A stretch of 63,858 bases of DNA, counting the filler, from Octopus bimaculoides (taxonomy: Eukaryota): NCBI RefSeq assembly GCF_001194135.2. It is 3 parts of 2 records of this genome, joined end to end, with 100 filler letters (N's around TTAATTAATTAA, not from the genome) between each part and the next. Parts side by side here need not be neighbours in the genome. Positions count along the whole stretch, not along the records: positions 1 to 12,789 come from NC_068982.1; positions 12,890 to 34,758 come from NC_068997.1; positions 34,859 to 63,858 come from NC_068997.1. One strand, given 5' to 3'. Every line of letters begins with the position of its first letter. Position 1 is the first letter of the stretch. The translations under genes were made by a program, and so were the position numbers. The notes under the pieces are model-generated. The model searched no databases, had not been told where the DNA came from, and saw only the letters and a list, made by a program, of their open reading frames with translations. Of the stretch, positions 1,473-58,550 are shown piece after piece.

Positions 1473-1815
1473 CCACACCAATACCCTCGCATCACACCGC
1501 GCACACACTACAACTGACCAACTACTTTCTCCCTTCCCCATTTTCACACTACATACGTCAAGATCACCAGCATTCTATCTCCCACACACAGCCCCTCGTT
1601 CTTCGATCACCGTTTGTTATCTCCCCCTTTTCTTAGCTCTCCTGAAAAAAGAATTTCTAACTTCCGGCAACCATTGTTATGATCAGCCATTATTATGATT
1701 GACCGTTGACTGGACACTATTCAATTTTTTTTCTCCGTGTTTTTCTCCTTGTCTCCGTATTCTATCTGTTGAAGAGCGTAGCTCGAAACGTCAAAGACTT
1801 TCCGTATTCCCGGAG
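1473..1815 (+). mobile_element. Dispersed repeat, probably a Penelope-like terminal repeat, with a minimal hammerhead-like motif at 1761-1797
   Basis: TCTAT-CTGTTGA-A-GAG-cgtag-CTC-GAAA-CGT-C-AAAGA. Homologous minus-strand copies at 42808-43010 and 54458-54640. Assignment to Penelope-like elements is inferred from the motif architecture. Confidence 0.65.
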
Positions 1816-2141
1816 TATATTTTGAAATGATATTATTATTGGGCAGTCTTACCTACACTGCATTATAAATTTTAACAGTTGAACAGGTTAGCAGACATTT
1901 CATGCTGCACTGTAAGGTCAGGATAAAGTCCATTGTCAAAATGGGGGAAGGTAGGTGTAAATAGCCAAACTGTGAAACTATAACAAATTGGCTAGACTTT
2001 AGCAAACCTATATAAGCAGAGACAATTGTACACTCAGTTTTTGTGACAGTTAAAGATTTTTTCTGTGAGACAAGGTTGTTCAATTGGATTCTGGAAGCTA
2101 TGATTGCCAGTTTAGTTCATGTATTTTGTGCTTTCTGTTAG

Positions 2142-2224
2142 GCATTTATGGACTTATCTTATGCTCGAGGAATTCGCCAGAACTTTTGCTTGTCAGATTT
2201 AAATAATTTCTGTGTCACATCTGG
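2142..2224 (+). CDS. Candidate isolated internal exon, product unknown (AFMDLSYARGIRQNFCLSDLNNFCVTSG)
   Basis: Acceptor ttttgtgctttctgttAG, donor GG|GTGAGT, 83 nt, one of three frames open. No homology recognised. Confidence 0.35.
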
Positions 2225-2597
2225 GTGAGTACAAAAATCTCTTAAATTATATTATTGTAATATTTATGCGAATTTTGAAACCTGCATTTGTGGTAGGTTG
2301 TGTAGTAATTTTGCTTGCTATTTTCTGTTAAGACAATGTTGAAAAATTTGTATAAATAGCTAAAAGGTGTATGAATTTAATTTTTCATGTAGCTAATTTT
2401 TGGTATAAGACAACTAAAGTGTAAATTTTGTCTAATGGTTACTCAGCATGCTTGTATGAATTAGTTTTGTGTGAATTTATAGCAAATTTATTATTTGTTT
2501 GGCCTTATTTTTTAACTATAATTATTGATGTAGTAGGGCAGCCGTTTTGTGTCATGAACTTTTAGTTTAAATTGTTGCCTTGACATTAGATTTACGT

Positions 2598-2760
2598 CCA
2601 AATTTCGAAAACCAAATTTATGAAACCAAATTTACGAATCCAAATTCTGAAAACCAAATTTATGAATCCAACGAAACTAAATTTACGAATCCAAACTTTT
2701 GAAATAAAATTTAGGAAATCAAATTTATGAAACCGAGTTTCTGAATCCAAATTTCTAAAT
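2598..2760. repeat. Degenerate 14-bp minisatellite, consensus about CCAAATTTATGAAA, roughly 12 units
   Basis: ccaaatttcgaaaa ccaaatttatgaaa ccaaatttacgaat ccaaattctgaaaa ccaaatttatgaat ... Confidence 0.9.
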
Positions 2761-3189
2761 TGTATATATTTTACTTTTGTAAATAGTTTGACTGCACGTC
2801 TAGTGTGGCATTAATTTATTGGTTCCTATATATTTACATATATACATATACACATACATATACTTATACATATATATATATATATATATATATATATATA
2901 TATATATATATATATATATATATATATATATATATATATATATATATATATATATATACTTATATATATATATACATATATATATACTTATATATACATA
3001 TACATACACACACACACATATATATATATGTATATATATACTCAAGTATTTGATATGAGCATTTCAAAGTTCGTTTCGACATTTTTCATTTTCTGCCGAC
3101 CGAAACTGCGTCTGCGCAGTGGATTTTGAAAAAAATATAATATATATCTAGAAGATATGTGTGTTTTGTCTCGTAGTCATACGTTAATC

Positions 3190-54640: not shown

Positions 54641-57017
54641 GGTATGTCCCTGTAACTTAGTCATTCAGCAAAAGCGACCAATAGACCGATAGGATAAGCA
54701 CTAGGCTTACAATAAATAAGTCCTGTGGTCGATTTGTTCGACTAAAGGCGGTGCTCCAGTATGGCCACAGTACAGTCAAATGACTGAAACAAGTAAAGAA
54801 TAAAAGAATAACAGAATCTAATTATATGATGTCCCTGTCAATTTGAAATGTCAAATCATTAACGATAACGATGACGCAACATAATTCCTTCTCCACAATT
54901 GAAACTAGGTCTCCAGCCTTGATCACGTAGAACATATCTTATCGTCTTATCTTTGGTCTCTCTTTCCCAAACTAAGCCACACACACACACATCACCACCA
55001 CCAACAACAACAGCAACAGCATCAACAATAATTTTATATACTTATTAATATCTAAAATATTAAAGAAACTTCAAGGAACAACTTTAAATGTTTTTCCAGT
55101 GCTGTTATTAAAGTTTGCTTTACACATTTAAGCATGTGTCATATATGTGAGTATATATATATATATATATATATATATATATATATATATATATATATAT
55201 ATATATATATATATATATATGTAGGTATATGTATATATATGTAAACACATATATATAAATGTAAATATATGTGTATATGTGTGTATATATGTATATGCAT
55301 ATATTTGCAAATTATGTAACATCACAGTTATTTTGCCCTTTCGTCAGCTGTATCTGTCTATCTAACTGTCTGTCTATCTAACTGTCTGTCTATCTATTTG
55401 TGTTAGCTATTATTATTTCATATCTTTCACCTTGTAAAAGAACCACAGCGCACTAAACTACCTCTGTATTTGCTGTATACAACTAATTAATTCTGTGTGT
55501 TCGGTCCCCAAAGCTATATGATTAAACAGCTATTATTTTGAGAGGGGTAAATAATTTTTTCTCCCCTTTTTCTATATACATACATGTGATAAAGTATACA
55601 GCATATATATATACCAACAAATTTATGAATATATATATATGTATATGTATACGAATATATATATATATATATATATATGCAGACATACATAGATATATAT
55701 GCATATACACATAAATATACGCATACATATATAATATGTTTGTTTCTGTAAATGTATGTTTATGTCTGTTTCAGTATGCATGCTAATGGTATATAGCATA
55801 TAATAATAGCAATAATGATGTTGATGATGATGATGATGATGATGATGATGATGATGATGATGAATATAAATACTATATAATGTACAGATAGATTGCTATG
55901 TAGATAAATAGATAGCATTTAATTATTATTTAACCATCTTTTAAATTGCTTTATCCACAAACTACTCGTCAAAGCTTAGAAAATTAGGATCTTTCCTCAG
56001 TATGGAAACAATATTTTTCAAAAATATATTATGTATTGTAATTAATTTTGATGTTATTTTTCATTCATTCATACTTTTACTTATTTATTCATTTACATAT
56101 ATTATGTTATATGCATATTGTGTCTGTATGTATACACACATATACATATATACATACATATAAATACATATATATATATAAATATATACAGACACATATA
56201 TATACATATATACATACACACGCACGCACATACATACACACACATATGTATATGTATTATATATATATAATACATATATATATACACATATATATTAATA
56301 CTTCAAACACGCGTTAATATATGTTTATGTACATCATATATACACAAGTATTTCAATAATGAATAAGCTGGTATATAATCATAGAGGGGCATTTATATAT
56401 ATATATATATAAATATATATATATATACACACACACACATATACACATATATACATACATATACAATCGCATAAATAAAGATATAGGCATAAATACATGA
56501 ATTCACACTCCTTCAAATTTATAAACTCACATGCATACATGCTCACACACGCACACACACACACACAAACACACACACACACACACACACACACACACAC
56601 GCACACGCACACAAATGCACAAAGAAACTGAATTAGGTTTCAGAAATGTAATTGAATTTCATTTGTAAATTTACAAATTTATGATAAGTTTTAACTCTAT
56701 ACATTTTTCTGTGTTGTTATTGTTTTGTAACATCCATGTTCCCTGCTTTTGCATTTTCTTTTTATAGCAGTGGAGGGTTAGTTCATTTAAACTATTCCTG
56801 TTTTCCATGTAAACAATTTGCAATAATCCAAATTACCTTTTGAAGAAGCGCTTCGGCCAATTCGTGTATAGATTAGTGGTATAGCTGAACCTTGATATAT
56901 TACCGGTATGGGCATAGATAATGAACAACTTCATTAGGTATTCTATTTACGAATGTCATGATATATACTGCATAGAAATGCACATGTCTGCGTATATGTA
57001 GATAACATCACCATCAG

Positions 57018-57175
57018 GTGTGGCCATGTGGTAAGAAGTTTGTTTCTCAACCACATGGTTCCGGGTTCAGTCCCTCAGTGTGGCACCTTGGGCAAGTGTC
57101 TTCTATTATAGCCTTAGCCTGACTAAAAGCCTAGTGGTTGTATCTGGTCAACAGAACCTGAAAGAAGCCCATCAT
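57018..57175 (+). mobile_element. Family B SINE
   Basis: gtggccatgtggtaagaagtttgtttctcaaccacatggttccgggttcagtccctcagtgtggcaccttgggcaagtgtcttc. Confidence 0.85.
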
Positions 57176-57266
57176 CTATCTATCTATCTATCTACCGCCA
57201 GATCCAGGTATTGAACCCTTGTTCTCACAGTCATGAGTGCAACACCTCACACCTTGCATACATATA

Positions 57267-57514
57267 CAACCATGGCCAAAAGTTTGGAACGTTATTTTTA
57301 AAATTAAAATTATTATGTTGGAGTACAATTTGATTCAAATATATACAACATATATATTTAGTCATTTGATATAAAATTCTAATTTTCCAAGACCTATGTT
57401 CCAGAGTTTTGGTCAAAATAATTAATTATATATTGCAAATTAAATATAGCTTTGGGTATTTGATATAAAAATTCTAATATTCAGACTTACGTTCCAAAGT
57501 GTTGGCCATGACTG
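57267..57514. mobile_element. Tc1-type MITE (248 bp) with 26-bp TIRs, TA TSD and an internally duplicated right end
   Basis: TA|CAACCATGGCCAAAAGTTTGGAACGT ... ACGTTCCAAAGTGTTGGCCATGACTG|TA (22/26 match). 57364-57415 repeats 57458-57508. Confidence 0.85.
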
Positions 57515-58301
57515 TATGTATGTATATATGTGTGTACATTTGTATGTATGTATATGTGTGTACATTTGTATGTATGTATATGTGTGTACATTTGTATGTA
57601 TATGTATCATCATCATCATCATCATCAGTCTTTGATAATAATGCAAAAAGGATGCTGGTAGGAAAGAAAACCTTTGATTAAAGGTTTGCTCACTCATGAC
57701 TAATCAGTGTGCTAAACAACAAAACAACAAAAAGAATAAAGAAAGGAATTGCCATTTATTACAGGGACAATGACATCTTGGATTTATGAAGAAAGAATGA
57801 TGAAGCTGAACTTGTGAAATGGTCATTCCAGAAATACAATTGGCGACTTTGGTAATAGTTTTTTTCTGTTATAGGCACTAAATTTTGTGGGAGGGAGGTG
57901 GTTGATAGCAGCACCACCATTTCTAAACTAGTACTCATCCTACTGACCCCAAAAGAAGGAAAACCAAAGGTGGTTTTCGCAGAATTTAAAGTCGCCATGT
58001 AAATCTGGAAGAAATGCCACTAACCATTTTATCTGGTTTCTCACAATTCTTCCAATTCACCACCTTTGATTTTGGTAATATTAAAAATGGAGACTGCCTC
58101 CCTTGTAGGATGAAGTTAAAATAATAGATAGAGAACACCACTGAAAAATAGGAAAACTAAAAGAAGCAGTACATATGCTAGGACACAACTACCTCTTAAG
58201 AAGACTGAGTGCAGATATGAGTAATATATGGGAACCGGTATTAACAAAGGATAGGAGAATATTAAATTTATAAGCCCTAAAATTCACTCCTCAATTGCCC
58301 A

Positions 58302-58550
58302 TGGCCATATGGCATAGTGGTTAAGAGCATGGGCTACTAACCCCAAAATTCCGAGTTCAATTCCAGGCAGTGACCTGAATAATAATAATAATAATAATAG
58401 TAATAATAACATCGAAAAATACCTTAGGAATGAGAACCCAAGTTCGAAATTTTCCCAAGACACATGATGAAAGCTGGAGGGTATATCAGCCAAAATGTGT
58501 TAACAACGAACAAGATGAGGACAAATATCCATCAAATGTAAATAATGTAC
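58302..58550 (+). mobile_element. tRNA-like head, (AAT)n linker and a tail with a decayed hammerhead-like motif (58459-58501)
   Basis: A-box TGGCATAGTGG (58310-20) and B-box-like GAGTTCAATTCC (58353-64). Tail GACAC-ATGATGA-A-AGCTG-gagggtatat-CAGCC-AAAA-T-GTGTT. Confidence 0.6.

Follow-up and report, generated by a model that had tools for sequence, protein, structure and literature searches.

We found that a hammerhead ribozyme motif at 58459, in a 63,858-nucleotide stretch of the Octopus bimaculoides genome, is very probably the terminal hammerhead of a 5'-truncated Penelope-like retroelement. The stretch (three parts of records NC_068982.1 and NC_068997.1 of NCBI RefSeq assembly GCF_001194135.2, joined end to end) is hereafter called the window. 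For the other hammerheads of the window, an origin in other Penelope-like families is likely, either as decayed pseudo-long terminal repeats (pseudo-LTRs) or as derivatives without coding sequence; the pair at 44152 and 44523 is likely a non-LTR retrozyme. The motifs are real but mostly decayed. Eleven sites in five to six families, numbered 1 to 6 in Table 1, lie in 53 kb of called sequence (34% G+C; 10,698 N in 33 gaps), in which microsatellites and repeats resembling short interspersed nuclear elements (SINEs) are plentiful.

A Penelope-type coding end precedes the family 5 hammerhead

The motif at 58459 is located 190 bases 3' of the broken end of an open reading frame (ORF) for a Penelope/Poseidon-type GIY-YIG endonuclease. 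For this family the original prediction, in which none of the motifs was attached to an ORF, is wrong. The segment 58100–58249 agrees with an Octopus vulgaris protein at 80% over 50 amino acids (E 3e-19). With the in-frame stops read as X, HMMER returned 77 matches at E<=0.001, three long ones of which look unrelated. The Atlas neighbours of the O. vulgaris protein are GIY-YIG clusters, and its longer relatives carry RVT_1 (three of five) and HTH_animal. Proteins P0079–P0081 have RVT_1 followed by the GIY-YIG end; by eye, P0081 has DKG and no CxxC linker. A tblastn search with 79 family-5-type proteins maps to 58100–58270 and to no other credible site in the window. The ORF features by which the Penelope/Poseidon clade is recognised, a reverse transcriptase followed by a C-terminal GIY-YIG domain, a DKG motif and the absence of a zinc-finger linker (PMC8557442), are seen through these relatives, the window itself keeping only the last ~57 codons. 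A PDB search with the endonuclease alignment gave no match, and Pfam named none of 25 short endonuclease fragments. Word-based protein searches with a spurious translation of the hammerhead region also gave nothing.

Reads of three raw RNA runs (about 6% of each run) and the contigs of one DNA set were mapped to 58100–58800 at 80% likeness. The summed depth of the 19,272 mapped contigs is 1.57–1.83 million over the motif versus 34–112 beyond 58580. This is about 5x10^4 times the flank, a ratio that is not a true copy number and is a sign of a very large family. Among related reads of run X21, core position 3 is C in 2072 of 2115, and position 12 is G in 1414 of 2144, where the alignment is ambiguous beside the deletion. 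A 3-base insert behind 58495 restores the length of helix III and occurs in two forms (258 and 281 reads at a depth of 2222), one giving a perfect palindrome and the other likely a CpG-decay form. Helix III had been described as partly deleted in this family; the loss is a 3-base deletion, confined to this copy among the related copies, the majority of which satisfy the type I core.

The family 5 repeat reaches upstream through 58100, its depth climbs toward the 3' end, and loose read ends reveal a pair of 3' termini, at 58548/58549 and from 58576 onward, separated by about 30 bases. Penelope-like elements have a 30–40-bp tail (PMC8557442, Fig. 2 legend), and the rise in depth and the two 3' ends fit 5' truncation and a tail of 30–40 bases. 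Family 5 therefore combines a hammerhead near the 3' end, 5' truncation and a tail, and its order of ORF end, 3' untranslated part, hammerhead, 3' end and tail is the order known for Penelope-like elements. Membership in the Naiad clade was rejected, as the family 5 endonuclease is C-terminal and Naiads are described without canonical hammerheads in PMC8557442. We also considered RNA editing. A>G and T>C changes are about twice as frequent in RNA as in DNA contigs, yet C>T and G>A are equally raised, and editing is for this reason not claimed.

A tRNA-like module lies between the coding end and the hammerhead

Between the GIY-YIG stop codon (58273) and the hammerhead, family 5 contains a tRNA-like module. 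Its B-box-like site has two mismatches in the local copy, the Rfam tRNA model gives 14 bits (E 5.3, below threshold), and ARAGORN called no tRNA gene at the module. In the contigs, pieces 4–6 link the module to the ORF end, while piece 7 links it across the TAA run to the hammerhead. At the module, RNA depth steps up by a factor of about 2.5, in a mapping from which rows at the TAA run are excluded. At the same place, 83 contigs agree over only about 8 letters on the 5' side of 58306 before their sequences part (agreement 0.41). Their start is thereby placed some 12 bases ahead of the A box, the position at which polymerase III transcription would be expected to begin. Subfamily variation accounts for part of the step in depth, since 402 reads of run X21 have one specific alternative upstream sequence.

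It is possible that an independent tRNA-headed SINE has arisen from family 5. Tentatively, and with the balance somewhat against it, we propose that a Penelope element of octopus acquired, between its stop codon and its hammerhead, a polymerase III promoter derived from a tRNA, and that the resulting module of ~280 bases (tRNA head, TAA run, hammerhead and Penelope tail) now spreads itself as an abundant Penelope-driven SINE. If true, autonomous Penelope elements would thereby be connected directly with the SMalpha-type hammerhead SINEs. A tRNA-headed derivative that is a true SINE would show an origin of SINEs from Penelope and explain part of the octopus SINE expansion. The schistosome SMalpha and Sjalpha repeats, which are short and abundant, likewise carry a promoter module ahead of a type I hammerhead (as given in PMC8490949 and PMC6765202); the family 5 module differs in its setting, downstream of the GIY-YIG stop codon and within the 3' end of a Penelope element that codes for protein. 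A literature search for a Penelope-driven tRNA SINE found none, most subscription papers, including the 1994 octopus SINE paper, being outside the search.

The motifs exceed the shuffled expectation

The type I order is seen at all eight sites of the original prediction, and the helix III palindromes are as given there. Judged by CUGANGA, GAAA, a UH cut site and three helices, only 3205 is fully intact; core or stem damage is present at the other 10 of the 11 sites. At 6311 the core is complete and the first stem I pair is absent, while the other local copies show one to three departures each. All three family 1 copies have U at core position 6, to which 42924 adds G8A. The family 4 sites have G8A (44159) and G15.1-C16.1 (44530), and 58464 combines C3A and G12A with its helix III deletion.

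A strict type I descriptor matched twice in the window (3205 and 6311), against a mean of 0.017 per shuffled window in 60 block-wise dinucleotide shuffles of the masked sequence. A graded descriptor found four sites at a score of at least 16 (3205, 6311, 44159 and 44530), against a null mean of 0.10 and a maximum of 1 in 100 shuffles; it was composed after the motifs were known and is optimistic. A fifth site, 1766, scores 14 in an alternative long-stem register. Lower-scoring matches of the descriptors (for example, 29528, 50355 and 53785) were taken as chance. Because the strict and graded counts exceed their shuffle nulls, the motif density is not a product of chance.

That the motifs are chance matches in AT-rich repeats is accordingly scarcely credible. 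Single decayed copies do stand near the chance level (the one-mismatch descriptor gives one match against 0.083 per shuffle), family 6 fails both the strict and the graded descriptor, and Rfam gives no hammerhead match: nothing reached the gathering score in the whole window, and the hammerhead models gave nothing up to E=10 in three sub-regions, families 1, 3 and 6 lying outside these. For families 2–5, however, chance is already refuted, and the family 5 majority restores the very core letters that the local copy has lost. Monomer folds of the eight cited sites are not better than those of shuffles (z -1.5 to +0.7). The palindrome duplexes of families 2, 3, 4 and 6 reach -8.4 to -13.8 kcal/mol versus 0 to -0.4 for the monomer hairpins, a difference that would favour cleavage as dimers in tandem transcripts.

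The flanks of the families differ, as had been claimed. Only five of 48 between-family pairs have z>2.3, all of them short and AT-rich with scores of 24–28, compared with 58–226 within families. Two similarities between families 1 and 6 were a (TA)n artefact and were gone after masking. The claim of five families holds in that several unrelated families exist, and the count is probably low. Masked self-BLAST and a half-motif scan found a probable sixth family at 326(-), 464(+) and 35338(+), for which the sequence evidence is composite. In family 6, 75% of helix cells pair versus 12–42% when slid, and each copy has one or two core changes; covariation is not significant among the three copies. 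Copies a and b form an inverted pair (211–381 and 409–596), 138 bases apart, inside a (TA)n-bounded block.

Table 1. Features of the window, with strand and, for the sites of the original prediction, the position of core nucleotide C3
Feature	Position	Strand	C3	Remarks
Family 1 copy a, minimal type I hammerhead	1761..1797	+	1766	extra A before stem II; 4-nt palindromic helix III; U at position 6
Family 1 copy b	42892..42929	-	42924	also G8A; short copy ~42807-43000, 3' end adjoins (TA)n
Family 1 copy c	54547..54584	-	54579	short copy ~54459-54650, 3' end adjoins (TA)n at same point as copy b
Family 2, fully canonical type I hammerhead	3200..3270	+	3205	40-nt helix II region; 10-nt palindromic helix III
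Family 3	6256..6317	-	6311	canonical core boxes; 10-nt palindromic helix III; mismatched first stem I pair
Family 4, partial tandem	44091..44691	+		two ~234-base blocks, 75% identical, 371 bases apart
Family 4, decayed hammerheads	44153-44202; 44524-44573	+	44159; 44530	one per block
Family 4, predicted monomer	44197-44567	+		between predicted cut sites
Family 5, broken 3' end of Penelope/Poseidon-type GIY-YIG endonuclease ORF	58100..58273	+		in-frame stops 58106, 58142; terminal stop 58271-58273
Family 5, tRNA-like module in 3' untranslated part	58298..58378	+		exact A box 58310; B-box-like site 58354; then (TAA)n run
Family 5, decayed minimal hammerhead	58459..58501	+	58464	C3A, G12A, 3-base helix III deletion; most related copies canonical
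Family 5, 3' end	58502..58576	+		similarity to other copies ends 58548/58549 or 58576 and beyond (~30-base tail)
Family 6 (probable) copy a	247..329	-		long helix II; 8-nt palindromic helix III; G5A; inverted partner of copy b
Family 6 (probable) copy b	461..558	+		G8A; 3' end adjoins (TA)n at about 597
Family 6 (probable) copy c	35335..35418	+		most decayed; 3' end adjoins simple repeat at about 35458
SINE-like family, pieces (with others)	4013-4179; 7250-7475; 9848-10079; 23302-23525; 48196-48397; 52663-53004

Ends of Penelope-like elements or stand-alone ribozyme families

We then considered the families other than family 5. Families 1, 2 and 6 abut (TA)n. Over all 11 sites, (TA)n lies 118–184 bases downstream of C3 at four and (AG)n at one; in families 1, 2 and 6 a simple repeat stands at this distance at five of seven sites, in a window that is itself (TA)n-rich. 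Insertion at simple repeats and an inverted partner copy, both of them traits of Penelope-like elements, are thus found among families 1, 2 and 6, with the same reservation about the (TA)n-rich window. Family 1 copies b and c are short at the 5' side. The likeness of copy a to the others starts near 1690, and this copy runs toward a gap (690–1472) that covers the sequence further upstream; an Atlas search of 1474–1695 gave no ORF evidence. Family 5 and, apart from position 6, family 1 conform to the minimal hammerhead consensus of PMC4209133, in the form that has one additional base ahead of stem II.

An alternative is that families 1–4 and 6 stand alone as non-coding families similar to retrozymes or SINEs, each multiplying through a circular RNA cycle and having outlived any autonomous relative. 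Searches by tblastn, Pfam and Atlas gave no remnant of an ORF next to them. Family 2 is an island of ~345 bases (about 3041–3385) between two (TA)n arrays, carries the perfect ribozyme and has a fold z of -2.3. Family 4 is a partial tandem with a 371-base spacing, and its monomer has a more stable fold than any of 100 shuffles (z -3.5). Nevertheless, the one family checked with outside data, family 5, is the tail of a coding element, and families 1 and 6 are dispersed copies ending at simple repeats, not tandem arrays. Moreover, a 2026 preprint traces retrozymes back to Penelope terminal repeats (10.64898/2026.07.22.740005), and the stand-alone reading would therefore also describe a known kind. 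We regard the stand-alone reading as unlikely, though far from negligible. A non-autonomous retrozyme fits family 4 well, and only family 4: it has a non-coding tandem unit within 150–400 bases and a hammerhead in each block, both cores being damaged. It is likely a non-LTR retrozyme; families 1, 2, 3 and 6 may be either autonomous or non-autonomous. In the second copy of family 4 (44553–44567), both partners of pair 15.1-16.1 have changed from A-U to G-C, by which the palindrome is kept and the core departed from.

Several observations weigh against the assignment to Penelope-like elements. The link to an ORF is seen in one of the six families only. Pfam, run on 24 frames near the hammerheads with stops read through as X, found nothing beside families 1–4 and 6, a search that is weak for short C-terminal ends; the 79 family-5-type proteins, which cover one clade, likewise found nothing there by tblastn. 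None of the six family-specific motifs was found in the supplement of PMC8557442. Covariation among three copies is not significant (in family 1, 320 of 500 shuffles scored as high). The U at position 6 is shared by all three family 1 copies, and a natural change at this position, A6C, has low activity (PMC3088659). In all three RNA runs, reads cross the predicted family 5 cut site and no read ends pile up at it, RNA-seq libraries of this sort being weak for detecting self-cleavage.

The assignment to Penelope-like elements remains the best explanation, and it would work as follows. A reverse transcriptase with a GIY-YIG endonuclease would copy the element RNA from its 3' end into new sites, often (TA)n, and copying would usually stop early, leaving short tails that lack the ORF. 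Under the dimer model of PMC4209133, the palindromic helix III would pair two hammerheads of a tandem transcript, which would cut and thereby free a unit-length, possibly circular, RNA. Most local copies have since lost core bases and are for this reason predicted to be inactive passengers. The families would look unrelated if they came from many clades whose individual terminal repeats evolve rapidly. The original prediction had suggested a large set of ribozyme-bearing non-autonomous elements. Its hammerhead type, the several unrelated families and the great abundance of at least one of them are borne out, whereas family 5 turns out to be the tail of a coding Penelope-like element.

It had also been suggested that the ribozymes trim or circularise host intronic RNA, and they might be retained for that. 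The intact motif at 3205 and the abundance of family-5-like sequence in RNA (9,942 reads of 12.9 million records in run X21) speak for such a role. Against it, core or stem damage is almost universal, the sites are split into seven on the plus and four on the minus strand, and no host gene was identified among the 148 frames scanned (the longest of 270 listed). For family 5, the RNA depth of the flank is 0–1 in all three runs, first mates fall equally on both strands, and the cut site has no pile-up of ends. We consider a host function highly improbable.

Other repeats and hammerhead-like sites

Two further sites resemble hammerheads. At 8885–8901 (-), a 3' half with GAAA, an 8-nt palindrome and UC is followed by a TA repeat at the edge of the gap 8902–9749, and the 5' half would fall within this gap. 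At 10165–10250 (-), a strong stem (z -4.7) is accompanied by GAAA, a 10-nt palindrome, UC and a long stem I, with no recognisable 5' core box; this is possibly another decayed hammerhead family. Self-BLAST revealed a SINE-like family that is abundant in the window (eight or more pieces) and within which no hammerhead motif was found, and two blocks of ~186 bases at 30144–30611 (74% identical, 285 bases apart), also without a hammerhead motif. A Tc1/mariner-like transposase fragment is present at 51682–52083 (+) (PF01498, E 1.8e-4, below the curated cut-off). Decayed frames at 43267–43500 and 38116–38400 have no Pfam match and resemble by eye what we take to be the end of a CR1/L2-type reverse transcriptase.

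Relation to known hammerhead-bearing elements

Hammerheads in Penelope pseudo-LTRs are already known from many animals, among them molluscs (PMC4209133, Cervera and De la Pena 2014), with Lottia and Crassostrea among the examples in the supplement. The window families resemble these metazoan minimal hammerheads in the type I order, the extra base before stem II and the short palindromic helix III, as well as in the presence of several families per genome, mostly as single truncated copies. Opposite-strand pairs 100–700 bases apart are also described there, comparable to copies a and b of family 6. The U at position 6 in family 1 and the tRNA-like module before the family 5 ribozyme are unlike the elements in that paper, whose main text and searchable supplement files, one file excepted, contain no cephalopod term.

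One hammerhead element, Hydra-1_oBim, has been catalogued for Octopus bimaculoides (PMC8557442 File S2, Craig et al. 2021), and elements of the Hydra clade insert in (TA)n (PMC8557442). The canonical hammerhead, the palindromic helix III of 4–5 bp in families 2, 3, 4 and 6, the (TA)n targeting and the occurrence in octopus are common to both. On the other hand, the window families differ from the tabulated Hydra-1_oBim motif, no Hydra ORF is seen in the window, and the helix II regions of families 2 and 6 are much longer (40 and about 58 nt). As to whether the motifs had been described before, the kind of element is thus published and one octopus member catalogued, and the window families are not that tabulated motif.

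Mussel retrozymes have units of 350–390 bp (PMC7229834, Cervera and De la Pena 2020). Family 4 is similar to non-LTR retrozymes (PMC7229834; Li et al. 2026, 10.64898/2026.07.22.740005) in its 371-base spacing and in being non-coding, AT-rich and self-paired, and unlike them in having only about 1.65 units, blocks of 75% identity and damage in both cores. The preprint text, supplements excepted, contains no octopus or cephalopod term. In other cephalopods, 235 Hammerhead_1 matches are reported for the giant squid (PMC6962438) and 31 recently active Penelope-like families for O. vulgaris (PMC13282606). The main texts of two octopus repeat surveys, as available (PMC13282606 and PMC8967140), do not mention ribozymes, and a literature search for a cephalopod hammerhead census found none, Repbase, Dfam and most subscription papers being outside the search. 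Collection scans with the motifs of families 1, 2 and 5 gave no match in six of seven scans; the exception, 19 bases in a bacterial chromosome (L001), is no more than expected by chance and was set aside.

The window families are best filed as octopus additions to an already described kind of element. They extend the known picture in that ends of Penelope-like elements with hammerheads are densely spread in octopus DNA and escape standard Rfam scans, and the perfect motif at 3205 could serve directly as the substrate of a cleavage assay. A census of octopus hammerheads would make a modest yet genuine contribution and aid in sorting repeats now filed as 'unknown' or 'unclassified SINE'.

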